A program made the position numbers and the translations under genes. The notes under the pieces were generated by a model. It saw only the letters and a program-made list of their open reading frames with translations, ran no database searches and had not been told where the DNA came from. A stretch of DNA of 64,000 nt from Candidatus Daviesbacteria bacterium (lineage in GTDB: Bacteria > Patescibacteriota > Microgenomatia > Daviesbacterales > UBA10151): assembly GCA_016184225.1 (NCBI GenBank), contig JACPDA010000004.1, positions 602,763 to 666,762 of the forward strand, read 5' to 3'. Shown here piece by piece: positions 6,323-43,995 of the stretch. How positions within the stretch are numbered: the first letter of the stretch is position 1; each line of letters starts with the position of its first letter.

Positions 6323-6342
6323 AGAAGAAGCAAGGGTTCAGG

Positions 6343-6415
6343 CGCCCCTGGAAGGAATTGCACCCTCGACCCTTTCGTCCGAAGCGAAATGCTCTATCTA
6401 CTGAGCTACAGGGGC
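6343..6415 (-). tRNA. tRNA-Arg (anticodon TCG)
   Basis: Acceptor GCCCCTG/CAGGGGC, D-stem GCTC/GAGC, anticodon stem TTTCG/CGAAA with loop CTTCGGA. Confidence 0.85.
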
Positions 6416-8610: not shown

Positions 8611-10446
8611 ATGAAGATTGATAAATTAAGCAAATTGGCAAAATTGTTAAGGTATTATATCCTGGTGTCTTCTTCCAGAGCCGGTTCAGGGCATCCGACT
8701 TCATCCTTGTCAGCTGTAGAGTTAATGGGGACACTGCTTTTTGGGGGCTTTTTTAGGTTTGACCTGAAAAACAAAAATAACCCCCTTAATGACCGGTTAA
8801 TCTTTTCCAAAGGCCATGCCTCTCCCCTTTATTATTCCCTTTTCACGGCGGCAGGTGCCATTACCAAAGCAGAACTCATGACTCTCCGGAAATTCGGCAG
8901 CAGATTAGAAGGCCACCCGACCATGGAATTTCCTTACACAGAGGTGCCAACAGGTTCCTTAGGCCAGGGTTTGTCAGCCGGTTTAGGCATGGCTTTGGTC
9001 AGCAAATACCTGGATAAAAGTAATTTCCGGACTTTTGTGCTCTTGGGGGATTCTGAAATGGCAGAAGGGTCTGTCTGGGAAGCTATACAGATAGCTGCTT
9101 TTTACAAGCTGGATAATTTAGTGGCCATCCTGGACGTAAACAGACTGGGACAAAGCCGGGAAACCATGCTCGGCCATGATGTTTCAAGCTACAAAAAAAA
9201 GCTGGAAGCCTTTGATTGGGAAGCAATTGTTATTGACGGCAATGACCTAAAACAGGTGACGGCGGCTTTTGAGAAAGCCTTAAAAGTGAAGGGTAAGCCG
9301 GTAATGATTATTGCCAAAACCTTTAAAGGCAGTGGTATATCATTTTTGGAAAATAAGGAAAACTGGCACGGCAAAGCCCTGGGTGAAAAGGATCTGAGTC
9401 TGGCATTGGGAGAATTGGGCCCGATAAATAAAAAGCTGCGCGGAAAAATTAATTTGCCCCGAAAGGCAGCTCTGAAAAAACAACCTGTCACCTATAACCT
9501 GAAACCTGTAACCTATTCCTTGGGCGAAACCATTGCCACCAGAAAAGCTTATGGTAATGCCCTAATTAGGCTGTTTCCCAAATACCCTGATATGGTAGTC
9601 CTGGACGGGGAAACCAGCAATTCTACTTACTCGGAATTTTTTGCCAAGGCGTATCCTGAGCATTTTTTTGAGATGTTTATTGCCGAACAAAACATGACCG
9701 GGGTGGCTCTTGGCCTGGCCAGGCTGGGTAAAATTCCCTTTATTTCCACTTTTGCCGCCTTTTTTACCAGAGCATATGATCAGATCAGAATGGCCCAATA
9801 TGCTGATACCAATATCAAGTTTTGCGGATCCCATGCCGGAGTATCTATCGGTGAGGACGGTTCCTCCCAAATGGGATTGGAGGATATCGGAATGTTCCGA
9901 TCGCTTTTGGGGAGCGTGGTGTTATACCCTGCTGATGCTGTATCCTGCGAAAAGCTGACTGAGGAAGCTATCAAGCATAAAGGAGTGGTTTATTTGAGAA
10001 CCACCAGGAAAGAAACACCGACTCTTTATAAAGCCAATGAAAAATTCCCCATAGGAGGCAGCAAGGTGGTTCGCAAAAGTAAGTCAGATCAGGTGACAGT
10101 GGTAGGGGCCGGCATTACGCTGCATGAAGCCTTAAAAGCCTATGACCTACTGAAAGCTAAAGGTATCTCCATCCGGGTCATTGATTTGTATTCTGTTGCC
10201 CCACTGGATTTAAAAACTTTAAAGCAGGCTGCTAAGGAAACAATGGCTGTTATTACTGTTGAAGATCATCATGCGGCAGGGGGAATAGGGGAAGCTGTGG
10301 CAGCTGCGCTGTCAGGAACAGGAAAGCCGGTACACATTATGGCAGTTACCAAAATGCCGCATAGCGGCAAGCCGGATGAGCTGCTGGAATATGAAGGTAT
10401 CTCTGCATCAGCTATTTACTCTAAAGTAAAAAAAGTGATAGTGTAA
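8611..10446 (+). CDS. tkt: transketolase
   Basis: Thiamine-diphosphate motifs (SSRAGSGHPTSSLS, GDSEMAEG) and pyrimidine-binding and C-terminal domains. ATG at 8611 follows the gdh stop directly; the longer ORF from 8509 overlaps gdh. Confidence 0.85.
   Translation: MKIDKLSKLAKLLRYYILVSSSRAGSGHPTSSLSAVELMGTLLFGGFFRFDLKNKNNPLNDRLIFSKGHASPLYYSLFTAAGAITKAELMTLRKFGSRLEGHPTMEFPYTEVPTGSLGQGLSAGLGMALVSKYLDKSNFRTFVLLGDSEMAEGSVWEAIQIAAFYKLDNLVAILDVNRLGQSRETMLGHDVSSYKKKLEAFDWEAIVIDGNDLKQVTAAFEKALKVKGKPVMIIAKTFKGSGISFLENKENWHGKALGEKDLSLALGELGPINKKLRGKINLPRKAALKKQPVTYNLKPVTYSLGETIATRKAYGNALIRLFPKYPDMVVLDGETSNSTYSEFFAKAYPEHFFEMFIAEQNMTGVALGLARLGKIPFISTFAAFFTRAYDQIRMAQYADTNIKFCGSHAGVSIGEDGSSQMGLEDIGMFRSLLGSVVLYPADAVSCEKLTEEAIKHKGVVYLRTTRKETPTLYKANEKFPIGGSKVVRKSKSDQVTVVGAGITLHEALKAYDLLKAKGISIRVIDLYSVAPLDLKTLKQAAKETMAVITVEDHHAAGGIGEAVAAALSGTGKPVHIMAVTKMPHSGKPDELLEYEGISASAIYSKVKKVIV
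9484..9518 (+). repeat. 5 tandem heptamers CCTGTAA-like, in frame in tkt
   Basis: cctgtca cctataa cctgaaa cctgtaa cctattc. Encodes the tandem 7-aa repeat QPVTYNL KPVTYSL. Confidence 0.7.
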
Positions 10447-10451
10447 TTTGC

Positions 10452-11321
10452 ATGCGTCCGGCTAACTTAAAAACCAAAATCTTTTTAGACTCCGGGGACG
10501 TCAATGAAACCAAAGAAATTATCAGTGCCTTAGGATTCCTGGACGGTCAGACTACTAATCCTACTTTAATTGCCAAAAATCCTGATGCCCAAAAGCGATT
10601 GGCAGAAGGTAATAAATTCTCAGCTGAGGAGATCATGAGCTTTTATAAATCAGTGGTCAGTGAAGTCTCAAACCTAATTCCGGAAGGCTCAGTTTCCGTT
10701 GAAGTTTATGCTGATAAAACATCTACGGCAGATGATCTGTTTGAGCAGGGTAGGGAAATGTTCCGCTGGATACCTAATGCCCACATTAAATACCCCATCA
10801 CTAAAACCGGGTTGGAAGCTGCCAGCCGTTCAGCAACTGAGGGTATGAGAGTAAACATGACACTGTGTTTTGCTCAGGAGCAGGCAGCTGCGATTTATGC
10901 CGCAACCTATGGGGCTAAAAAGGGCGGGGTGTTTGTATCTCCTTTTGTCGGCCGGCTGGATGATAAAGGCTTAAACGGTATGGATTTGATCAAAAACATT
11001 ACTATAATGTATGGCGCCGGAGATGGACATGCTCAAGTGCTTGCCGCTAGCATACGCAATCTGGATCACTTATTATATTGTCTTCAGCTTAAATGCGATC
11101 TTATTACAGCGCCCTTTAAGGTTTTAAAAGAATGGGCCGAAACAGGCATGAAAATGCCCGGGAATGATTATATTTACCCATCGCATAGTCTTGCACCGAT
11201 TGAATATCAGGAAATAAACCTGGACAAACCCTGGCAGGAATACAATATTACCCATGAAATGACTGATGCCGGAATTGACCGCTTTGCCGCTGATTGGAAT
11301 AGCCTGATTAAAGCTCAATAA
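10452..11321 (+). CDS. tal: transaldolase / fructose-6-phosphate aldolase family
   Basis: IFLDSGD start, Schiff-base lysine region and TIM-barrel pattern of short transaldolases. Confidence 0.75.
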   Translation: MRPANLKTKIFLDSGDVNETKEIISALGFLDGQTTNPTLIAKNPDAQKRLAEGNKFSAEEIMSFYKSVVSEVSNLIPEGSVSVEVYADKTSTADDLFEQGREMFRWIPNAHIKYPITKTGLEAASRSATEGMRVNMTLCFAQEQAAAIYAATYGAKKGGVFVSPFVGRLDDKGLNGMDLIKNITIMYGAGDGHAQVLAASIRNLDHLLYCLQLKCDLITAPFKVLKEWAETGMKMPGNDYIYPSHSLAPIEYQEINLDKPWQEYNITHEMTDAGIDRFAADWNSLIKAQ

Positions 11322-18623: not shown

Positions 18624-19298
18624 TTAGCCTTCCACACCGGGTGTGGAATCGTAAACGTCATCCAGTTGGTGATGCTTAAGTATTTCTAGCTCCATTCCAT
18701 AATCCACCTGAGCTATTACGAATTTTTCGTAGTCTTTTGAATTTTTAAATAACCCCAAAACTATATCTGGAACACATATTATTGGTTTTATTAAATATTC
18801 CTGATAAGAAGACCAAGGGTATTTGTCTATACTTTTAATTAGTTTAGAAACTACCGGATTTAGATGGATATACCGGGATACGTGTACTAATTGTTCATCA
18901 TTTTCAATCCTAACGGCCTTAAACCTATTTTGCCATAACGGACCAACCCGGTTATATTTAGTATTGAAATACTTAGAATAACTATTACAAAACTGCTGAA
19001 TAAAACGACTAGCCCCATTATCTTGTAATTGCCTGATCAAGAAGTGAAAATGGTTGGGCATAAGGCAATATCCGATAATTTCAACATATTTCTTGTCGGA
19101 AATTGGTTTTGAAAAATTTAATTTTGCTTTGCTAAAAAAAGAGAACTTGGGCTTCTTGCCGGAAAACTGATAATAGTAAAATGTTTTTCTGAAACGGTCA
19201 TAATCTCTTGGCTGAAGAAAAATATCTCGCTTTTCACTTCCTCTGTTAAAAAGGTGGTAAATCTCTCCTGTTATAATTGGTGATGTTCTTCCGGGCAT
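18624..19298 (-). CDS. tnpA: IS200/RAYT-like Y1 tyrosine transposase
   Basis: YCLMPNHFHFLI HuH motif and the downstream catalytic Tyr region (VSRYIHLNPV). Paralog of the 43244..43915 gene. The true start is probably M53 (MPGRTSPIITGEIYHLFNRG); the longer ORF to 19454 runs through the terminal hairpin. Confidence 0.7.
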   Translation of the reverse strand: MPGRTSPIITGEIYHLFNRGSEKRDIFLQPRDYDRFRKTFYYYQFSGKKPKFSFFSKAKLNFSKPISDKKYVEIIGYCLMPNHFHFLIRQLQDNGASRFIQQFCNSYSKYFNTKYNRVGPLWQNRFKAVRIENDEQLVHVSRYIHLNPVVSKLIKSIDKYPWSSYQEYLIKPIICVPDIVLGLFKNSKDYEKFVIAQVDYGMELEILKHHQLDDVYDSTPGVEG

Positions 19299-19345
19299 AT
19301 CTTCTACTTTAGCTTTCCACACCCGAGGTGTCAACCTATGGCCCT
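18628..19345 (-). mobile_element. IS200-like insertion sequence (about 720 bp, single Y1 transposase, subterminal hairpins)
   Basis: Hairpin TTCCACAC-CGG-GTGTGGAA at 18630-18648 and TTCCACACCCGAGGTGTCAACCT at 19315-19340, in the same orientation, flank tnpA. The size matches IS200. Confidence 0.5.
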
Positions 19346-19346
19346 C

Positions 19347-19368
19347 TAAAAAAGCCCCTTGCGGGGCT
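19347..19368 (-). terminator. rho-independent terminator after the GH5-like gene
   Basis: Minus strand reads AGCCCC-GCAA-GGGGCT followed by TTTTTT. Confidence 0.55.
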
Positions 19369-19512
19369 TCCTTAGAGAACCTGTCAATATCGGTCTTGCG
19401 ACTGATAAAGAAACTTTTTGTCTTACGACTGAAGTTTTTAACAGGTTTAATCACTTTACATCAGCGAATATACTCTGTCAACTGGGACAAAACGGATCAA
19501 AATATAGCAAAA

Positions 19513-21639: not shown

Positions 21640-23097
21640 ATGCGAAGCATACTACATATTGACTTCAATTCTTATTTTGCTTCTGTTGAACAACAGGCAA
21701 ATCCCCGGCTGCGGGGTAAACCAATTGGTGTTACAGGTGGGGATAGGATGCACAGGACAGTTTTGGGTGCAGCTTCAATAGAAGCCAAAAGGTTTGGTGT
21801 TAAAACCGGGATGCAGATTTGGGAAGCCAGGAAGCTTTGTCCACAAATTATCCTGGTGCCAGGAGATTCGGATAAGTATTTGGAGATAACTAAACGCTTT
21901 TTAAGTATTTTAAAAGACTACAGCCCTGCCCGCATTGCTTCGTCCACCAGTAACGCTTCGCGTAACGATGCGGACTGGCAAAGCGATGCAGGCGGGCCAT
22001 ATTTGGAGGTTTTTTCTATTGATGAATGTTTTTTAGAATTGGTGAATACTTCAGTCGGCAGCCCCGCTCTCTTGCTCGCTAACGCAAGCGTCCTGCGGTC
22101 CGATATGGATCGGACCTCGGATACGCTCGTCTTCGACTCGTCTAGAGCTTGCTGCGTTCGGAGGCAGCCTCCTTCTGCTACAGAGATTGCTTTTGATATT
22201 AAAAGTAGAATCCGGACTGAAATAGGCGAATACATTACCTGTTCTATTGGCATCTCTTACAATAAACTGATGGCCAAACTGGCTGGATCTTTACAAAAGC
22301 CTGATGGTCTGGTAATCATTCCCAACCAGGAAGAGGCGATTAAAGTTTTAGACAAAATAGAACTGGATGAAATTTGCGGCATCGGGCCAAGGATTAAGAA
22401 AAGGTTAAACAACTTAGGAGTATTTAATTTTTACCAGCTAAGGCAAGTTCCTTTAGAAAGCTTACTGGCTGCCTTTAAAAGCTATGGTCAGATCCTTTAT
22501 AACATGGCCAGGGGTATTGACCATTCACCTGTAGTGCCTTTTTACCAAAAAGAAGAAGTAAAAAGTATCGGTCACAGACATACTATAGATCATGATACTG
22601 CCGACCCAAAAGAGATAAAACAAATTCTACTCAAACTGTCTGAGATGGTAGCCAGAAGACTCAGGGCTAAAAGATTGGTTGGCAAAACCATCCATTGCTG
22701 GTATCGGGAAGCATTCTACTCCCGATTCCACCTGGAAGGTGAAAAAATGCAGCTACACCTTCCAGGTGAGTTTAATGGTAACAGCATGCAAATGACTATT
22801 CTCTATACCAATGATGGTTTGGATATCTTTAAAGCTGCCTGGAAAATTTTTCATCAGATCTGGAATACGGAAAAAATTAGGATGGTTGGTATCTCCATCT
22901 CCAACCTTAAACCCCAAACCCCGCAAAATTTAAGTTTTTTGCCTGAAGAGCAAAGAAAAGAGATAATCACCAAAGCTTTGGATAAAATTAATGACAGATA
23001 CGGTGAATTTACCCTGCAACGCGGCATCCTGCTTCAATCTGCTTCCATCAAAAGAAAGCCCAACCCCTTCCTAGCTGACAGAAGATTCAGACTTTAG
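21640..23097 (+). CDS. dinB: DNA polymerase IV (Y-family) with two GC-rich in-frame insertions
   Basis: ILHIDFNSYFASVEQ, FSIDECFLEL, SIGISYNKLMAKLA and C-terminal little-finger motifs. 485 aa, against about 350-400 typical. Confidence 0.8.
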   Translation: MRSILHIDFNSYFASVEQQANPRLRGKPIGVTGGDRMHRTVLGAASIEAKRFGVKTGMQIWEARKLCPQIILVPGDSDKYLEITKRFLSILKDYSPARIASSTSNASRNDADWQSDAGGPYLEVFSIDECFLELVNTSVGSPALLLANASVLRSDMDRTSDTLVFDSSRACCVRRQPPSATEIAFDIKSRIRTEIGEYITCSIGISYNKLMAKLAGSLQKPDGLVIIPNQEEAIKVLDKIELDEICGIGPRIKKRLNNLGVFNFYQLRQVPLESLLAAFKSYGQILYNMARGIDHSPVVPFYQKEEVKSIGHRHTIDHDTADPKEIKQILLKLSEMVARRLRAKRLVGKTIHCWYREAFYSRFHLEGEKMQLHLPGEFNGNSMQMTILYTNDGLDIFKAAWKIFHQIWNTEKIRMVGISISNLKPQTPQNLSFLPEEQRKEIITKALDKINDRYGEFTLQRGILLQSASIKRKPNPFLADRRFRL

Positions 23098-24065: not shown

Positions 24066-24189
24066 GTGACTGCCTAATCCACCCCCCAGGTGAATTTTGC
24101 TAAATAGATCTCAAATTGATAGAATACTCACAGTTGCACATTGACATCTGAACTGGCAAATAATGTATACTAATTGCATAGGTCTTAAT

Positions 24190-24909
24190 ATGAGAGTTAG
24201 GTTAAATGAAAGAATATTGGCACGGCAACTGAGGGAACAAGGACTCAGTTTTAGTGAAATCATGCAAAAAATTCCAAATCTTTCTAAAGGTACTCTTAAT
24301 GGATGGCTTAAAGGGGTTGAGTTATCTGAAAACCAAAAACAGAGATTATTTGCAAGGATTAAGGATGGAGCCACAAAAGGACGGCTTAAGGGAGCTTTTA
24401 CGAATCATCAAAGGAGGATGGAGATTACTTTTGAGATTATTAATAGTGCTAAGAAGGAAGTTGTAGAAAGAATTATGAATCCCCTTTTTACAATGGGAGT
24501 TATGCTTTATTGGGCAGAGGGGGATAAGTCTCAGGAACGGGTTGGTTTTACAAACGCTGACCCCACTATGATTCAGTTCATAATGAAATGGTTTAGGGAA
24601 GTTTGTGGAACGAGTGAAGAGAAGTTTAGGGTCGCCTTAAGTATTATGACTTTACACGACAAAAACGCATCAGAGAAATTTTGGTCAGAAATTACCGGAA
24701 TACCCTTAAGTAGGTTTAATAAAACACGGATTAAACAAACACTTCTAAGGGGTAAAAGAAACCCCTCTTATATGGGGACGTGTAGAATAGTTATTTCTGA
24801 TAAGAATTTATTCAGGAAGATAATGGGCTGGAAGATGGGAATTATAGAAAACTTTAAAATATTTGCCCCCGTGGCTCAACGGATAGAGCAAGTGAATTCT
24901 AATCACTAG
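24190..24909 (+). CDS. HTH-domain hypothetical protein (possible LAGLIDADG-like motif LYWAEGDKS)
   Basis: ILARQLREQGLSFSEIMQKI helix-turn-helix. The longer ORF starts at 24163 but a TTGACA-17-TGTATACT promoter overlaps that ATG, so M10 at 24190 is more likely. The 3' end runs into tRNA-Arg. Confidence 0.4.
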   Translation: MRVRLNERILARQLREQGLSFSEIMQKIPNLSKGTLNGWLKGVELSENQKQRLFARIKDGATKGRLKGAFTNHQRRMEITFEIINSAKKEVVERIMNPLFTMGVMLYWAEGDKSQERVGFTNADPTMIQFIMKWFREVCGTSEEKFRVALSIMTLHDKNASEKFWSEITGIPLSRFNKTRIKQTLLRGKRNPSYMGTCRIVISDKNLFRKIMGWKMGIIENFKIFAPVAQRIEQVNSNH

Positions 24910-24937
24910 GTTGGGGGTTCGAATCCCTCCGGGGGCG
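24865..24937 (+). tRNA. tRNA-Arg (anticodon TCT)
   Basis: Acceptor GCCCCCG/CGGGGGC, D-stem GCTC/GAGC, anticodon stem AGTGA/TCACT with loop ATTCTAA, T-arm GGGGGTTCGAATCCCTC. Confidence 0.8.
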
Positions 24938-24939
24938 CA
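24923..24939 (+). repeat. 17-bp direct repeat copy 1 (ATCCCTCCGGGGGCGCA, the tRNA-Arg 3' end)
   Basis: Identical 17-mer recurs at 25538-25554. Confidence 0.75.
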
Positions 24940-25047
24940 CTACAAAAGGTTGGACTTGGAAATGAGTAACCACCTAGCGAAGCGGGGTTCGCTCTCCGCC
25001 GTAGGCGGAGCTTACTTGTTAAGATCCTTCCAGGCGCGCAGCGAAAT

Positions 25048-25398
25048 TTGATTCCTATGAAACCTGAGAAAATTATAGATGAAGCATGCATAGGTGATAT
25101 AGAGCAGGGTACCGTACCCTTACCTACCAAGAATTCGAAAAAACCTTTGATTATGGCAGTTGAGTTTGAGGAAACAATTGAAACTCCGGATCAACTATTC
25201 AAAGGCTTTAAGAGACTTCGGTTAACGGAATGGTTTAAAAGGCTAAAATCAAACAAGCAAAGAGTAGTTCCGTTAATGCCGCATAAAAAAAGTACTTTGT
25301 TGGTTATAGGAATTGGTACGGTTTTTGCAATTGGTATGGCGTACAAAGGCTATAGAAATTACAAGGATAAGCATAATCCGCAAAAAAAACTAAAATAA
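25048..25398 (+). CDS. hypothetical protein with C-terminal TM helix
   Basis: 116-aa ORF inside the repeat-bounded islet. Single hydrophobic helix near the C-terminus. Confidence 0.35.
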   Translation: MIPMKPEKIIDEACIGDIEQGTVPLPTKNSKKPLIMAVEFEETIETPDQLFKGFKRLRLTEWFKRLKSNKQRVVPLMPHKKSTLLVIGIGTVFAIGMAYKGYRNYKDKHNPQKKLK

Positions 25399-25485
25399 TC
25401 CCACAAGTTTACCGTCTTTATCAATATCAACCCTTTTCCCTGCAGGAGAAGAGGGAAAAACCCGGTATAGTCCGCATTTCACCCA
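25395..25485 (-). pseudogene. duplicated 3' fragment of fhs (formate-THF ligase)
   Basis: About 90 nt roughly 85% identical to 26262-26350, the last codons of fhs. Frame is disrupted. Confidence 0.5.
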
Positions 25486-25504
25486 TCTAAAGTCCTGATT
25501 ACAT

Positions 25505-25527
25505 GATTACACCCTTGGGGTGTAATC
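25505..25527. repeat. REP-like hairpin GATTACACCC-TTG-GGGTGTAATC
   Basis: Same family as 31978-32000 and 35808-35834. Confidence 0.7.
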
Positions 25528-25537
25528 CTAGCATTTG

Positions 25538-25554
25538 ATCCCTCCGGGGGCGCA
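25538..25554 (+). repeat. 17-bp direct repeat copy 2 (ATCCCTCCGGGGGCGCA)
   Basis: Exact repeat of the tRNA-Arg 3' end, 615 bp downstream. attL/attR-like. Confidence 0.7.
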
Positions 25555-25573
25555 GATTTTGGGTTCTAAGAAA

Positions 25574-25617
25574 GGGTGTCAACCTAATACACCCTCCGGG
25601 TGTAAAGCTGTAAAGCT
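25574..25617. repeat. REP-like element GGGTGTCAACCTAATACACCCTCCGGGTGTAAAGCTGTAAAGCT
   Basis: Near-identical to the right end of the IS200-like element at 43949-43985. Confidence 0.7.
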
Positions 25618-25636
25618 ACATCAGCCGATCTTATAT

Positions 25637-25975
25637 TTACCTGTATTGGGTCCTCCACGGATAAAGCTTGATCCAGGCTGCCAGTATTGTGGCCAGGCCT
25701 ATTATCACTAAAGCCCATAAAGCAGAGGCGAGAGTACTAAAGCCCAGTGCAAAAGGAGCCAGCACCGCCCCCACACCCGCTGCGCCGATTACCCAGTATT
25801 CCCATCTTTCCTTATCTGCCGCAATTCCCTCAAGGATAGAAGCCACGATCAAAACTGCCCCCACAATTAGGCTAGCCCAAAGGGCAGCTGAATTAGTGCT
25901 ATAACCAAACATGTATGGAGAAACTATTGATATTAACCCCAGAAATCCGGTTAATAAATACATACCGTTTTTCAC
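25637..25975 (-). CDS. small membrane protein with internal duplication (SPW-repeat-like)
   Basis: Two similar halves, each with a pair of TM helices (VSPYMFGYS and LAPFALGFS). Confidence 0.4.
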   Translation of the reverse strand: MKNGMYLLTGFLGLISIVSPYMFGYSTNSAALWASLIVGAVLIVASILEGIAADKERWEYWVIGAAGVGAVLAPFALGFSTLASALWALVIIGLATILAAWIKLYPWRTQYR

Positions 25976-26255
25976 CTCCTGCTTGCTTGACTAAACCTTA
26001 ACCCTTTGGCAGGAATTTTTCAGTGAGATGCATTACATTGTAACCAAGATTACTGAAAAGATACCTTTTTAGATATATAAATGAAACTATGAAGAAAGTT
26101 ATTAAAGAATCAATCAGGAATTCCATATTCGGGGCATTATTTACCCTCTGGACAGCTCCTATAGATGACCCAAAAATGGATATATCGCGGGTTAAAAAAC
26201 AGCATAGGATGACCAGTAATTGGTTTCCTAATGATTTAATTATCGGCCACAGACC

Positions 26256-27944
26256 CTAAAAAAGTCCCACAATTTTACCGTTTGAATCAATATCCACCTT
26301 CTCGCCGGCAGGAGAAGAGGGAAGCCCCGGCATAGTCCGCATCTCACCCAAAAGGGGATAGAGAAAGCCTGCACCGGCGGAAAGGCGCACATCCCGGATC
26401 GGAACCGTAAAACCCCTTGGCCTGCCCTTTAGGTTTTTATCATGGGAAAGCGACTCATGGGTCTTGGCCATGCAGATAGGCAAATCAGCATAACCCATTT
26501 CCGTGTACACCCTGATTGCCTTCTCAGCAGCCGGCAGGTAGGTTACCCCATCTGCCCCATAAATCTTTTTGGCGATGGTTTCTATTTTTTCCTTGATCGG
26601 CAGATCCAAGGGATAGAGGAATTTAAAATGGCTGGGCTTTTCGCAGGCTTTTACCACAGCTTTGGCCATTTCAATCCCGCCGCTACCGCCTTTGGCGTGA
26701 ATATCGCTGACACAAGCCGACACGGCGCCTGCTTTAAGGGATACTTCTTTAATAAGTTTGATTTCGGCATCAGTATCAGAAGCAAAGCGGTTGATGGCTA
26801 CCACCACCGGTACCCCGAAATAGCGCATGTTTTCAATCTGCTTTTCCAGGTTTTCCGAACCTTTCTTGACTGCTTTCAGGTTTTCTTTAGTCAGTCCCGG
26901 GTCCAACGGCTTTCCGGCTATCACCTTAAATCTTCCGCTGTGCATTTTCAAGGCCCGGACGGTAGCAACGATTACTACTGCATCAGGAACTAAACCGCTG
27001 GCCCGGCACTTGATATCCATAAACTTTTCCGCCCCTAAATCAGCCCCGAAGCCGCTTTCTGTCACCACAAAATCTGCCAGCTTTAAGGCAATTTTATCTG
27101 CCAGGATCGAGCTGTTGCCGTGGGCAATGTTGGCAAAAGGGCCGCAGTGGACAAAGGCCGGGGTATTTTCCAAAGTCTGCATCAGGTTCGGCTTAATGGC
27201 ATCTTTTAATAGTACAGTCATTGCACCTGCCACTTTTAAATCTTCCGCTGTCACCGGCTGCCCGTCCCTAGTGGTAGCCACTACCATCTTCCCCAGGCGC
27301 TCTCGCAGGTCTTTTAACCCGGAAGTTAAAGCCAGGATAGCCATTACCTCCGATGCCACAGTAATGTCATATCCGGTTTCCCGAAGCATGCCCTCTTTGT
27401 TTAAACCGATGATGATGTGACGAAGGGCCCTGTCAGACACATCTACCACCCTGCGGAAGCTAACCGCCTGCGGGTCAATATTTAGCTTGTTGCCGTGAAA
27501 GATATGGTTGTCAATAAAGGCGGCCAAAAGATTGTGGGCCAGCCCTATGGCATGGATATCGCCTGTTAGGTGCAGGTTAAAGTCCTCCATGGGGACGATC
27601 TGGGAATAACCGCCTCCGGCAGCTCCGCCTTTGATGCCAAAGACCGGGCCTAAAGACGGCTGGCGGATACAAATAATGGCTCTTTTGCCGATTTTTTTCA
27701 AAGCCTGGCCTAAGCCAACTGTGGTAGTGGTCTTGCCTTCTCCCAGCGGGGTGGGGGTGATGGCCGTCACATCAATATATTTGCCGTTTGGCCTCCCTTT
27801 TAACCTTTTTAAAACATCCAGGGAAACTTTTGCTTTGTATTTGCCGTAAACTTCTATTTCCTCATCCAGTAATCCCGCTTCGGCGGCTACGGCGGTAATT
27901 GGTTTGAGCTTACTTGCCTGGGCTATTTTAAGGTCACTTAACAT
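26256..27944 (-). CDS. fhs: formate--tetrahydrofolate ligase
   Basis: [15 protein letters not shown]-loop, [14 protein letters not shown], and full-length collinearity at 562 aa. Confidence 0.9.
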
Positions 27945-27983: not shown

Positions 27984-28000
27984 CCCCGATTAAATCGGGG
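27984..28000. repeat. CCCCGATTAAATCGGGG palindrome, copy 3
   Basis: Intergenic, flanked by TGAC and TTGAC. Confidence 0.7.
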
Positions 28001-28037: not shown

Positions 28038-28751
28038 ATGTCCCAGTCTCTTGTTAGAAAAGCCTCCGCAGTTTTAGTTGGTTTATCAATCCTGGCTACC
28101 GGTATTTCCCCGGCCATCGCCCTGGATTCAACTGCCTCAGCCCCGATTAAATCGGGACCGGCAGTCAGGCCTGTCCTTAAAAAAGAAGCCACACAAAAAA
28201 TAGAGACCCGCCGGGAAGACGTGGAAGCTAAAGTAGCAGCAGCCAGGGACAAAATAGCCTCTCGGGCAGCCGCCTTAAAGACCAGGCTGCAGGCTTTCAA
28301 GGATCAGAAAAAAGCCCAAATAACGGAAAGGGTCAATACCAATCTAAACAATATCAACCAAAGCCAGACAACTAAGATGCAAAAACACCTGGATAAAATG
28401 TCTGAGATTCTAAATAAGCTGGAAGCCAGGGTAAACCAAAATAAGCCGGATATAAAAGACCCGGCTAAAGCAGAGGAGGCAATAGCTTCTGCCAGGGCCA
28501 CCATTGCTACAGCTTCTGCTGCCGTCTCCGCCCAAGCCTTAAAGGATTACACCATCTCAGTCAGCTCGGAGAGCAGGGTCAGGCTGGATGCCAAGCTGCA
28601 AAGGGATAAGATGCACACAGACCTTCGGACCGTCAGGAAAGCTGTTATAGATGCAAAGCAGGCAGTGGCAAATGCAATAAGGGTTGCCAAATCAGGTAAA
28701 GTTGAGATTCCTGGAATAGGGAAGGAGGGAACCGAAAGTGGACAACAGTAA
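28038..28751 (+). CDS. secreted coiled-coil protein
   Basis: Signal-like N-terminus (AVLVGLSILATGISPAIA) followed by a long helical, K/A/E-rich region. Contains palindrome copy 4 at 28141-28156. Confidence 0.4.
   Translation: MSQSLVRKASAVLVGLSILATGISPAIALDSTASAPIKSGPAVRPVLKKEATQKIETRREDVEAKVAAARDKIASRAAALKTRLQAFKDQKKAQITERVNTNLNNINQSQTTKMQKHLDKMSEILNKLEARVNQNKPDIKDPAKAEEAIASARATIATASAAVSAQALKDYTISVSSESRVRLDAKLQRDKMHTDLRTVRKAVIDAKQAVANAIRVAKSGKVEIPGIGKEGTESGQQ
28141..28156. repeat. CCCCGATTAAATCGGG palindrome, copy 4
   Basis: Inside the 28038..28751 CDS, in a different reading frame (encodes APIKSG). Confidence 0.65.
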
Positions 28752-31977: not shown

Positions 31978-32000
31978 GATTACACCCCAGGGGTGTAATC
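31978..32000. repeat. REP-like hairpin GATTACACCC-CAG-GGGTGTAATC
   Basis: Same family as 25505-25527, about 12 nt from the tRNA-Pro 3' end. Confidence 0.7.
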
Positions 32001-43186: not shown

Positions 43187-43995
43187 AGGTTTACACCCGG
43201 AGGGTGGTATAGCTTTACACCTGTTCTTTCATTCATTAAAATATCATTCAAAAGTTAGATGCTTGATAGCTTCCAACTGTTTCCCATAGTCTATTTGATT
43301 ATTAACAAATTCCTGATAGGCTTTTATTGTTTTGAACATGCTCAAAATTAAATCTGTCTGCGATATTTCCAGGTTGGATAAAGATAAATATTCCGGATAG
43401 GATGACCACTGATAACTCTCCAGCTTATCATCCGGTATCACACCGGAAGCCACCGGGTTTAGGTGGATGTACCTGGAGACATGAACCAGCTGCTCATCAC
43501 TTTCAATATGAACCGCCTTAAAAACACCCTCAAATAAGGGCCCTGTTCTTTCATATTTGGTATTAAAATATTTAGTATAAGCGTTTGTAATATTGGAGAT
43601 AAAAGAGGAGATCCCTTTATCTGTGTTTTGTTTAAGCATAAAATGGAAATGGTTGGGCATCAGGCAGTAACTTAGGATATCTACCGCTCTTTCACTCTTA
43701 TAAAGAGCAGCCAGTAACTTCTCTCTGATCTCTTCAGGTTGCTGGATAACCTGGGAAAACCTGACCGGGATATCCTTGTGCCTATAGAATTTGACCAGCT
43801 TCTGCATCCTTTCAAATTCTCTTTTTTCCGTAAATGTAGTCCTTCTTTCTATTCCTCTATTAAATATATGATAGATCTCGCCCTCTCGAAACACCAACTT
43901 TCTAAGTGTGGCCATAAATATATCTTAAACATAATAGAGAAAGGGTGTCAACCTAAAACACCCGGAGGGTGTATGGGTGGGTGTATGGGTAATAG
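43187..43995 (-). mobile_element. IS200-like insertion sequence (about 810 bp) with subterminal hairpins
   Basis: TTTACACCCGGAGGGTGGTA at 43191-43210 and GGGTGTCAACCTAAAACACCCGGAGGGTGTATGG at 43949-43982 flank a single Y1 transposase gene in the same orientation. Confidence 0.55.
43244..43915 (-). CDS. tnpA: IS200/RAYT-like Y1 tyrosine transposase
   Basis: YCLMPNHFHFML HuH motif and the downstream catalytic Tyr region (VSRYIHLNPV). Strong similarity to the 18624..19298 paralog. Confidence 0.75.
   Translation of the reverse strand: MATLRKLVFREGEIYHIFNRGIERRTTFTEKREFERMQKLVKFYRHKDIPVRFSQVIQQPEEIREKLLAALYKSERAVDILSYCLMPNHFHFMLKQNTDKGISSFISNITNAYTKYFNTKYERTGPLFEGVFKAVHIESDEQLVHVSRYIHLNPVASGVIPDDKLESYQWSSYPEYLSLSNLEISQTDLILSMFKTIKAYQEFVNNQIDYGKQLEAIKHLTFE

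Follow-up and report, generated by a model that had tools for sequence, protein, structure and literature searches.

The DNA analysed here, hereafter the window, is a 64-kb stretch of one contig from Candidatus Daviesbacteria (CPR/Patescibacteria). In the part under study, an open reading frame (ORF) runs into an intact tRNA-Arg(UCU) gene, and short copies of the tRNA 3' end and of the fhs 3' end lie between that tRNA and fhs. The features were located as follows; loci of related genomes are denoted by L numbers.

24097-24125, plus strand: promoter-like site for tRNA-Arg, TTGCTA-17-TAGAAT, found by consensus scan
24134-24189, plus strand: leader of the nuclease-like ORF, containing a conserved promoter-like stretch (ACATTGACA.CTGAAC ... 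TATACT)
24190-24909, plus strand: 239-aa ORF with an N-terminal HTH and a LAGLIDADG-like domain, its stop lying 45 nt inside the tRNA
24865-24938, plus strand: tRNA-Arg(UCU), intact (ARAGORN; Rfam, 67.5 bits)
24923-24939, plus strand: 17-mer copy 1, an exact repeat found by the window search
24940-25023, plus strand: tRNA trailer, common to relatives (trailer homologs in L088, at 88% over 34 nt, and in L110)
25024-25040, plus strand: copy 3, an old and decayed stub of the tRNA 3' end, aligning column for column with the L088 and L110 stubs
25057-25398, plus strand: 113-aa ORF with a predicted C-terminal membrane helix, of a rare family of unknown function
25390-25485, minus strand: fhs pseudogene fragment, the last 31 codons and the stop, with one 1-nt insertion that causes a frameshift
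25508-25524, unstranded: REP-like palindrome 1, TACACCCTTGGGGTGTA, found by palindrome scan
25538-25554, plus strand: 17-mer copy 2, 17/17, beginning exactly at the T-loop position TTCGA|AT
25568-25604, unstranded: REP-like unit 2, AGAAAGGGTGTCAACCTAATACACCCTCCGGGTGTA, with another copy at 43937-43973
25637-25975, minus strand: gene for an SPW-repeat membrane protein (Pfam PF03779, E 1.3e-15)
26089-26259, plus strand: conserved 56-aa ORF, convergent with fhs and overlapping its stop; a homologous ORF lies at 3638-3796 of L092
26256-27944, minus strand: fhs (formate-tetrahydrofolate ligase), intact (Pfam PF01268, E 6.8e-267)

The preliminary description of this DNA had proposed a tRNA-Arg(TCT) gene whose 3' end recurs downstream as an exact direct repeat. 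A tRNA-Arg(tct) was indeed called at 24865-24938 on the plus strand, and the 17-mer ATCCCTCCGGGGGCGCA occurred exactly twice in the 64 kb, at 24923-24939 and 25538-25554. Copy 1 spans the last two T-loop bases, the 3' strands of the T-stem and the acceptor stem, the discriminator base, and a further 2 nt. The two copies have no related flanking sequence, with matches at 3/16 bases on the left and 0/8 on the right. With up to two mismatches allowed, the chance expectation in the window was 0.01. With up to three, there were three matches against 0.12 expected, and the sole extra one was a decayed additional tRNA-end copy at 25024-25040 (copy 3, ATCCTTCCAGGCGCGCA), which is absent from the preliminary description and which matched copy 1 at 14/17 positions and the L088-type tRNA end at 15/17. 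Since only the tRNA and its stub copies matched within the window, the scan ruled out a chance or common motif, and the claim that the 17-mer is not a frequent one was upheld. Two exact matches were also found in viral contigs: one lies within a coding region and looks like chance, and the other resembles the 3' part of a tRNA. Variation among strains in the source samples was rejected as well, as five Logan contigs were 100% identical to the window and the lone apparent divergence among them was a Nextera adapter.

The GC-rich double hairpin reported downstream of the tRNA was present, with AGCGAAGCGGGGTTCGCT at 24976-24993 and CTCCGCCGTAGGCGGAG at 24994-25010. Both hairpins belong to the trailer, which also contains half a terminator-like palindrome. 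The trailer gave no Rfam match even at E <= 1 and folded no better than shuffled sequence (z = -0.36); a structured RNA or ribozyme was thus ruled out there. The promoter-like site at 24097-24125 is identical in L086, L090, and L111, where it lies immediately 5' of tRNA-Arg; in the window it is parted from the tRNA by the inserted nuclease-like ORF.

The small ORF had been given as 116 aa, which holds if it starts at a TTG (25048-25398); from the ATG at 25057, the start in the public annotation, it is 113 aa. A word-based search with this ORF returned only the self-match, and an exhaustive search found four relatives. One of them, P0242 (60% identity), sits between the tRNA stub and the SPW gene in L110, where the order is stub, ORF, SPW, and fhs, with neither a second repeat nor an fhs fragment. 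Homology to the ORFs at the same position in L090 and L086 was unsupported: the L090 ORF is pilin-like (T2SSG), and those of L086 are unrelated.

A degraded copy of the fhs 3' end had also been noted, and the alignment confirmed it: 25390-25485 on the minus strand matched 26256-26350 with 82% identity over 96 nt (79/96 identical), at a spacing of 865-866 bp from the resident fhs end. The stop of the fragment overlaps that of the 113-aa ORF. The resident fhs was the best match among all fhs genes compared, the relatives reaching 74-79%, and neither the 120 homologs nor any of the loci examined contained a foreign fhs closer to the fragment. The pattern of its 16 substitutions over codon positions, counted by eye, was too weak to tell drift from selection. 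Further downstream, the SPW gene is patchy, being present in L086, L088, and L110 and missing from L090 and L092. A primordial fhs island with a tRNA stub at its far edge was considered and rejected, as no stub was found between fhs and the 237-aa gene. A scan of a genome collection with fhs returned mainly non-CPR genes, and the lone Patescibacteria match is broken off inside the gene; the long contig of a further relative, P0008, stops 41 bp past fhs.

Stubs of the tRNA-Arg 3' end were identified in four genomes, the window and three relatives. All five start right after TTCGA of the T-loop (TTCGA|ATCC). The sequence to their left bears no relation to the tRNA, and the acceptor part agrees with the resident tRNA at 14-17 of 17-18 positions. 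L088 and L098 additionally carry 5' stubs of tRNA-Arg, located in L088 upstream of the tRNA gene itself and in L098 before the nuclease-like ORF. The tRNA/stub pair of L088 encloses 106 bp without a gene, and the order that follows is stub, SPW, fhs. The pair of L090 holds a GIY-YIG nuclease gene. Three nuclease families thus occur at one tRNA: the GIY-YIG gene in L090, the LAGLIDADG-like ORF in the window, L098, and L111, and a PD-(D/E)XK nuclease in L092 (PDDEXK_5, PF11645, E 5e-31). Among the relatives, the interval from tRNA-Arg to the 237-aa gene varies from 50 bp (L095) to several kb.

The preliminary description had read the DNA between the two exact copies as an islet left by site-specific integration, that is, as a decayed integrated element or a recombination scar. 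Tyrosine integrases that target tRNA genes have a canonical identity block running from the T-loop to just beyond the 3' end. Classical integration would mean that one or more integrase-borne elements entered the T-loop/3' end of tRNA-Arg, that the 17-mers are attL/attR cores, and that the integrase was later lost. The repeat does start in the T-loop, like classical tRNA att sites, and its extent is that of the canonical block; one breakpoint is shared by five stubs, the region 3' of the tRNA is variable among relatives, and GGGGG(Y)GTATT left of the stub in L088 and L090 could be an element arm. As in tyrosine-integrase islands, the tRNA 3' segment is directly repeated and variable genes lie downstream of the tRNA. 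Against this, and as the preliminary description had itself remarked, no integrase domain was found in the ORFs of at least 170 aa at 14-36 kb of the window or in the islet ORFs; none was found in roughly ten related loci either. The first ~85 bp between the repeats (24940-25023), including the first hairpin, are trailer that is homologous in L088 and L110, and the older stub inside is the positional counterpart of the stubs of those two loci. The enclosed DNA is not gained or lost as one unit among the relatives, and the ORF of L110 lies outside its tRNA/stub pair. Moreover, the proximal stub is decayed and the distal one perfect, the reverse of what serial integration predicts; an integrase acting at the 3' end would not leave the 5' stubs of L088 and L098; and the interleaved fhs fragment requires a separate event. 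A discrete integrated element therefore fails on account of the trailer, the old stub, the placement of the L110 ORF, the L088 and L090 pairs, and the missing integrase, and we regard classical integration as unlikely. Of the earlier reading, the tRNA origin and rarity of the 17-mer stood, as did a scar at a variable, tRNA-linked spot; an element bounded by both copies and a decayed integrase-borne island did not.

In our preferred reading, which we consider to have somewhat less than an even chance of being correct, recombination has left a scar here, at a hot spot immediately 3' of tRNA-Arg(UCU), where two versions of one interval were joined by break repair. Two versions of the interval from the tRNA 3' end to the fhs 3' end would now stand in tandem. 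In the left unit, the old stub (25024-25040) would be followed by the 113-aa ORF, as in L110, and then by the displaced fhs end (25390-25485); the right unit would comprise the perfect stub (25538-25554), SPW, the 56-aa ORF, and intact fhs, with the stub-SPW-fhs order of L088. Their junction would be non-homologous and lie between 25486 and 25537. What is observed is the set of copies with a common breakpoint, the synteny, and the nuclease genes with their linkage to tRNA genes; from these, we infer the break-maker and the repair route. First, a double-strand break would have arisen at TTCGA|AT in the T-loop of a tRNA-Arg gene copy, probably caused by a nuclease; a likely agent would be a homing endonuclease targeting tRNA genes, such as the LAGLIDADG-like ORF that abuts the tRNA. 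To mend the break, a version of the locus with another layout would then have been copied, either from a sister copy or from DNA taken up from a relative. The copied tract would have extended across the tRNA, its trailer, the old stub, and the 113-aa ORF, reaching into the fhs 3' end, and would have been closed by end-joining, not by homology, to the 3' stub of the broken tRNA.

Break repair is favoured by the interleaved order (tRNA end, ORF, fhs end, tRNA end, SPW, fhs end), the shared breakpoint of the stubs, the 5' stubs, the three nuclease families at one tRNA, the linkage of the ORF family to tRNA genes, the variable interval up to the 237-aa gene, and the lower G+C of the ORF and the islet. 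The most distal stub from the tRNA is the perfect one, and this argues against it unless the event was recent or the stub was lucky in escaping mutation. A donor in which the 113-aa ORF is followed by fhs without SPW between them was not found among the related genomes. The bases GTATT, common to the L088 and L090 stubs just left of the breakpoint, appear to reflect either shared ancestry or the conserved arm of an element, neither of which is predicted by the break-repair model. The T-arm is identical in nuclease-linked and nuclease-free tRNAs; with the T-loop as target, protection of the carrier allele would be hard to explain. A further point against is that the ORF is assigned to the LAGLIDADG-like family at motif level. 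In the T6SS effector arrays of Vibrio cholerae, sequential displacement reportedly leaves 3' gene stubs as short pseudogenes beside the newcomer, and here too the 3' end of a displaced gene copy would be left as a short stub. Homology-facilitated illegitimate recombination is similar in that homology anchors one side while the other is joined without it; one-sided homology with illegitimate joining is a documented route (PMC3240628). Both kinds of case were established by experiment or population data, whereas the route proposed here is deduced from a single genome compared with a few relatives; at our locus, a nuclease rather than incoming linear DNA may be behind the break.

The interleaved order also fits an internal tandem duplication. 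Here, the interval from the stub to the fhs end of an L110-like ancestor would have been doubled by unequal or illegitimate crossing-over and reciprocal losses would have followed, the left copy losing SPW and the right copy the 113-aa ORF, with no nuclease and no foreign DNA. Divergence is equal in the two pairs concerned (copy 3 against copy 2, 14/17, 82%; the fhs pair, 79/96, 82%), and the fragment is nearer to the resident fhs than to that of any relative compared. However, two tidy deletions are required, one of them leaving the ORF stop over the stop of the fhs fragment, and copy 2 must remain 17/17 while its sister drifts by 3/17. In addition, the acceptor base of copy 3 is of the C70 type found in other lineages instead of the resident G70, and the recurrent stub breakpoint in other genomes is left unexplained. 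We judged such a duplication to be improbable.

The second 17-mer might instead be no scar at all but a functional sequence that selection or gene conversion maintains. It might serve, for example, in termination or processing, or act within the SPW/fhs 3' UTR as antisense to the tRNA 3' end. The stub tracks the resident acceptor in four genomes (17/17, 17/17, 17/18, and 15/17), and copy 2 lies between two REP-like hairpins in a convergent intergenic region. Nevertheless, there is no stub in L086, L092, or the other contexts of the ORF family, the L090 stub is sense-oriented between two same-strand genes, and copy 3 has decayed. A trailer that is not unusually stable and matches no RNA family also speaks against function, and 17 nt of homology is a poor substrate for gene conversion. 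This explanation is very unlikely.

We then characterized the ORF upstream of the tRNA, which, as previously noted, reads 45 nt into the tRNA gene (stop at 24909). It had been called an HTH protein. An N-terminal HTH is present; the protein does not appear to be a plain regulator and seems to belong to a LAGLIDADG-like family tied to tRNA genes. Homologs formed about 150 protein clusters, and those with a named source come from CPR bacteria. The motif LYWAEGxK was invariant in 27 aligned homologs. In a PDB profile search, the seven best matches were all I-DmoI (E 0.04-0.08), with LYWAEGDK of the window aligned to LYVAEGDK of I-DmoI. The AF2 model had a pLDDT of 90; Foldseek matches were weak, with none below E = 0.009, and the predicted strand order deviates from the canonical LAGLIDADG fold. 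No Pfam (including LAGLIDADG_1/2/3), NCBIfam, or PHROG family matched at E <= 0.01, and no GIY-YIG match was obtained. On the motif-level profile match (E about 0.05), we assigned the ORF to an unannotated LAGLIDADG-like family as a putative nuclease.

The linkage of this family with tRNA genes was observed repeatedly. The ORF abuts or overlaps tRNA-Arg(tct) in 7/7 CPR contexts with differing neighbours, and translated tRNA sequence forms the C-terminus in at least 14 of the 27 aligned homologs. The leader stretch is kept 5' of the homologous ORFs in L098, L107, L111, and L112, whose neighbourhoods are otherwise unrelated. Distant viral homologs have a tRNA gene within about 200 bp at 16/16 loci, mostly inside tRNA arrays.

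A precedent is SegB, a free-standing homing endonuclease encoded among the clustered tRNA genes of phage T4; its recognition site includes a conserved T-psi-C stem-loop motif, and the tRNA genes neighbouring SegB are co-inherited with it (PMC2330249). Our locus resembles this case in having a selfish-type nuclease gene beside tRNA genes and stubs that break in the T-loop. The two differ in that SegB is a GIY-YIG enzyme of a phage, whereas the window protein is LAGLIDADG-like with an N-terminal HTH, is encoded on a bacterial chromosome, is tied to one tRNA (Arg-UCU) and overlaps its first bases, and is known from sequence. Although no member of SegB, the window ORF may work in a SegB-like way. 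In CPR rRNA genes, insertion sequences with single-motif LAGLIDADG enzymes are common, occupy fixed sites in stable-RNA genes, and are patchy across lineages (PMC11270868). The window ORF shares with these enzymes and I-DmoI the single motif, the stable-RNA gene site, and the patchy occurrence; in contrast, it stands 5' of an intact tRNA, outside any intron or insertion sequence, and has an extra HTH, a long helix, and weak fold-level similarity.

It is possible, though doubtful, that the ORF and tRNA-Arg(UCU) form a two-gene mobile cassette in which a putative tRNA-gene homing endonuclease cuts the T-loop (TTCGA|AT) and the stubs are its scars. The hints of site-specific cleavage of the gene-less allele are indirect: the gene is present or absent at a fixed site, and the stubs have one breakpoint in common. 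If the cassette reading is true, the nuclease would spread across the CPR with its own copy of the tRNA, and in large phages the tRNA arrays would be shuffled by related enzymes. Repair would have left the stubs of both tRNA ends, the 17-mer among them, and the hot spot so created would gather cargo such as fhs.

The scar alone is ordinary, and the nuclease module linked to the tRNA is the interesting part. One tRNA gene in the genome-reduced CPR serves as a landing pad: nuclease genes of three unrelated families settle there, as does variable cargo that apparently includes fhs. In CPR chromosomes and large phage genomes alike, members of an unannotated LAGLIDADG-like family are physically linked to tRNA genes. 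Should this family consist of homing endonucleases targeting tRNA genes, it would offer a route of gene flux where few mobile elements are recognised, and new long-site nucleases. A direct repeat of a tRNA end without an integrase should not automatically be read as a decayed island.

The REP-like hairpins reported to straddle the second repeat were found as TACACCC-N3-GGGTGTA at 25508 and 25588. They resemble REP/REPIN sequences in being short, GC-rich, over-represented palindromes scattered through intergenic DNA; such sequences account for the hairpins, but not for the copies of the tRNA end and the fhs end. A Y1_Tnp ORF (18624-19454, E 5.6e-12) lies ~6 kb away, with no REP copy flanking it within the window. 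The G+C content of the upstream ORF and the islet is 0.36-0.40, lower than that of the flanks (0.45-0.52). Six REP-like palindromes (four exact and two near) occur in the 64 kb against 0.14 expected, and the units have extended flanks in common.

The 17-nt sequence at the 3′ end of tRNA-Arg(UCU) recurred exactly at one downstream site and nowhere else within the 64 kb, in agreement with the preliminary description; shuffled sequence gave 0.01 matches with up to two mismatches tolerated. The flanks of these two copies showed no relationship. A third tRNA-end copy, absent from that description, matched at 14 of 17 positions and was the sole additional match in the window with three or fewer mismatches. 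The features concerned are as follows.

Features around tRNA-Arg(UCU) (window coordinates)
24190–24909: LAGLIDADG-like ORF
24865–24938: tRNA-Arg(UCU), called by ARAGORN and Rfam
24923–24939: copy 1, ATCCCTCCGGGGGCGCA
24940–25023: trailer, the DNA directly 3′ of the tRNA
24976–24993 and 24994–25010: pair of GC-rich hairpins
25024–25040: copy 3, ATCCTTCCAGGCGCGCA
25390–25485, minus strand: 3′ fragment of the formate-tetrahydrofolate ligase gene (fhs)
25538–25554: copy 2, ATCCCTCCGGGGGCGCA
26256–27944: resident fhs

Displaced fragments of the tRNA-Arg gene end (stubs) are a feature of the lineage. In the related locus L088, the tRNA's own 3′ end was repeated, starting 123 nt past the first copy with no gene between; stubs were located 139 nt away in L110 and 369 nt away in L090, where a GIY-YIG ORF (10275–10538) is enclosed. 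All five stubs, two of them in the window, start at the same base, right after the T-loop TTCGA. Left of this breakpoint, none of the five matched the tRNA. To its right, they closely tracked the acceptor sequence of their own genome's tRNA: tRNA and stub share GGGGGC in the window and GGGCGC in L088 and L110 (15/17 overall in L110), and L090 has TGGGTC in the tRNA versus TGGGCC in the stub. A functional, conserved stub as the explanation of copy 2 is, in our estimate, very improbable. In a three-way alignment, the window trailer corresponded to the trailers in L088 and L110, and copy 3 to their stubs. Therefore, the DNA just within the proposed islet (the DNA between copies 1 and 2) is a trailer common to relatives, not island DNA. 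Copy 3 was equally near tRNA-Arg(TCG) (window 6341–6415, minus strand; 14/17) and tRNA-Arg(UCU), having the bases CCTTCCAGG in common with the 3′ end of the former; since copy 3 positionally matches the relatives' stubs, this likeness is probably a coincidence.

The islet had been taken for a decayed integrated element or a recombination scar. The scar indeed resembles the att repeats of tRNA-borne islands, but it has neither an integrase nor a presence/absence unit exactly at the repeat, two of the properties that define them. The reported lack of an integrase held for the islet, for ORFs of at least 170 aa at 14–36 kb and for the related loci read. Furthermore, 5′ stubs, a product that a 3′-end integrase does not leave, were present in L088 (L093 5565–5586; 22 nt, 57 nt upstream of the tRNA, with ~33 bp between) and in L098 (5694–5740; upstream of the nuclease-like ORF, with a 21-nt D-loop insertion). 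Classical site-specific integration is thus an unlikely origin: the reported feature is a real, ordinary kind of scar, whose cause is probably not the one first proposed. As a separate observation, a viral contig (IMGVR_UViG_3300035679_000007; L132 4171–4210) carries 24 nt identical to the 3′ part of the window tRNA-Arg, GGTTCGAATCCCTCCGGGGGCGCA; ARAGORN called no tRNA there, and the match may represent an att site, a stub or a tRNA of unusual form.

The window's fhs protein is identical to one annotated in a Candidatus Daviesbacteria genome. Logan contigs of the same study matched the window with 100% identity, without any variant of this locus. Related Daviesbacteria, whose fhs proteins are 86–89% identical to that of the window, keep the order DinB-like gene, epimerase, tRNA-Arg(UCU), variable stretch, fhs and a 237-aa gene. 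The variable stretch differed in each genome read.

Content between tRNA-Arg and the 237-aa gene in related loci (SPW, SPW-repeat membrane protein gene)
L095: 50 bp only
L098: HIT-family gene, without fhs
L092: 447 bp, then fhs
L088: SPW, fhs
L090: GIY-YIG gene, pilin-like gene, fhs
L086: histidine kinase, 358-aa gene, SPW, 81-aa ORF, fhs

As fhs was not found in this zone in L095 and L098, the variable zone includes fhs itself, with or without SPW. The nearest non-CPR fhs proteins carry a Chloroflexi label (75–82% identity), suggesting that fhs may be horizontally acquired cargo of a tRNA-Arg hot spot. Independent assemblies tend to stop at this locus (contig ends of L001, L110, L111 and L114), at tRNA base 1, farther inside that gene, or some tens of bases past fhs, which would fit strain-level heterogeneity. 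On the near side, the DinB/IMS-family ORF (21640–23097) encodes 485 aa, compared with 402–447 aa in relatives, and has additional serine- and alanine-rich segments. On the far side, an exact 16-nt palindromic repeat, CCCCGATTAAATCGGG (27984–27999 and 28141–28156), brackets the start of the 237-aa gene, its upstream copy falling within an insertion of 22 bp as compared with other genomes.

Within the islet, the hairpin pair, the small ORF (116 aa with a TTG start, 113 aa with the ATG at 25057) and the fhs fragment were all present as previously described. The fragment comprises the final 31 codons and the stop codon and aligned to the resident fhs end (26256–26350) with 82% identity and a single frameshifting insertion. 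Among all fhs genes compared, the resident gene was its nearest match (relatives, 74–79%), so that the donor was either an earlier state of the same lineage or a relative outside the sample. Internal duplication with reciprocal loss, a rival explanation of the locus, is in our view unlikely. The fragment and the small ORF have overlapping stops, as do the resident fhs and a 56-aa ORF, suggesting that the small ORF and an fhs gene were formerly direct convergent neighbours. The 56-aa ORF (window 26089–26259) is of a conserved kind, 52–56 aa long and convergent with fhs with overlapping stops, which also occurs at L092 3638–3796. The small ORF appeared orphan in a word-based search; an exhaustive search gave a 60% identical homolog in L110, in the order tRNA, trailer, stub, ORF, SPW, fhs. 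L110 lacks both the second stub and the fhs fragment, and hence the repeat does not delimit the ORF as cargo.

Judging from the L110 layout, the window reads as a tandem of two versions of the same interval, with a non-homologous junction between 25486 and 25537: an L110-like left part (stub, ORF) closing with the fhs stub, and an L088-like right part (stub, SPW, fhs).

The genes found at tRNA-Arg are nuclease genes rather than one for an integrase. Besides the GIY-YIG ORF, a PD-(D/E)XK ORF (L092 2869–3285; PF11645, E 5e-31) ends at the first base of tRNA-Arg. The LAGLIDADG-like ORF occurred in the window, L098 and L111, and was absent from L086, L088, L090, L092 and L095. Its unannotated family (window, L098, L107, L108, L109, L112) comprises about 150 protein clusters, of which all with a named source are from CPR bacteria, and has the invariant motif LYWAEGxK; distant relatives lie at viral loci L115–L130. 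Against PDB, I-DmoI alone headed the list for the family profile (E 0.04–0.08), the alignment spanning the LAGLIDADG helix (LYVAEGDK) and the following strand and helix. The AlphaFold model was confident (pLDDT 90), its Foldseek matches were weak, and curated family libraries gave no match; we therefore call the protein LAGLIDADG-like rather than a proven member. The HTH noted earlier in this protein is present, within this LAGLIDADG-like family.

The genomic setting of the family was much clearer than its fold. In 7/7 CPR contexts with otherwise unrelated neighbours, the ORF adjoined a same-strand tRNA-Arg(UCU) at its 5′ end or ran into it, and of 27 aligned homologs at least 14 have translated sequence of this tRNA at their C-terminus. 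Among distant homologs in large viral contigs, mostly inside tRNA gene arrays, a tRNA gene lay within about 200 bp in 16/16. The 45-nt overlap already reported for the window places the stop codon inside the tRNA (24865–24909); many homologs use the anticodon-loop TAA. If ORF and tRNA are transcribed together, cleavage by RNase P would therefore strip the stop codon, leaving a non-stop mRNA.

We tentatively propose, at somewhat less than even confidence, that a putative nuclease made a double-strand break in the T-loop of a tRNA-Arg copy. Its repair would have used a differently arranged version of the locus as the template, the far end of the copied tract being captured without homology; such one-sided homologous plus illegitimate joining has been described previously (PMC3240628). 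Copy 2 would then be the 3′ stub of the broken gene, and the copied tract would end in the fhs fragment. TTCGAA, the T-loop core, is palindromic and has T-stem arms on both sides, which would suit a homodimeric single-motif LAGLIDADG enzyme, and a cut with TCGA overhangs would put the right-hand end exactly at ATCC. This break-repair explanation has weak points: the T-arm does not differ between alleles carrying and lacking the ORF, although carriers would have to escape cutting; GTATT is shared left of the L088 and L090 stubs, which is unpredicted; the perfect stub is the most distal one; and the donor version was not found among the relatives read.

As a further precedent, the homing endonuclease T4 SegB lies within a tRNA cluster and recognises a site that includes the T-psi-C stem-loop motif (PMC2330249). 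The window ORF may be likened to such a free-standing enzyme, although the catalytic fold is different. It is also like the single-motif LAGLIDADG enzymes of CPR rRNA insertions (PMC11270868), but lies outside any intron and is missed by their family models. No account of a LAGLIDADG-like family linked with tRNA-Arg(UCU) or phage tRNA arrays turned up in a literature search of incomplete coverage, which is not proof of novelty. The tRNA-linked nuclease module around the scar is worth experiment.

The label REP-like was apt for the hairpins straddling copy 2: TACACCC-N3-GGGTGTA was found on both sides, and six copies (four exact; window 25508, 25588, 31981, 35812, 43192 and 43957) were present versus 0.14 expected. 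An ORF of 276 aa (18624–19454, minus strand) that adjoins tRNA-His and encodes a Y1 transposase domain of the IS200-like type (PF01797, E 5.6e-12) is a candidate RAYT for these hairpins and is flanked by none of the copies seen in the window. A longer 37-nt unit is common to 25568–25604 and 43937–43973, and the copy at 31981 lies 14 nt past the 3′ end of tRNA-Pro.
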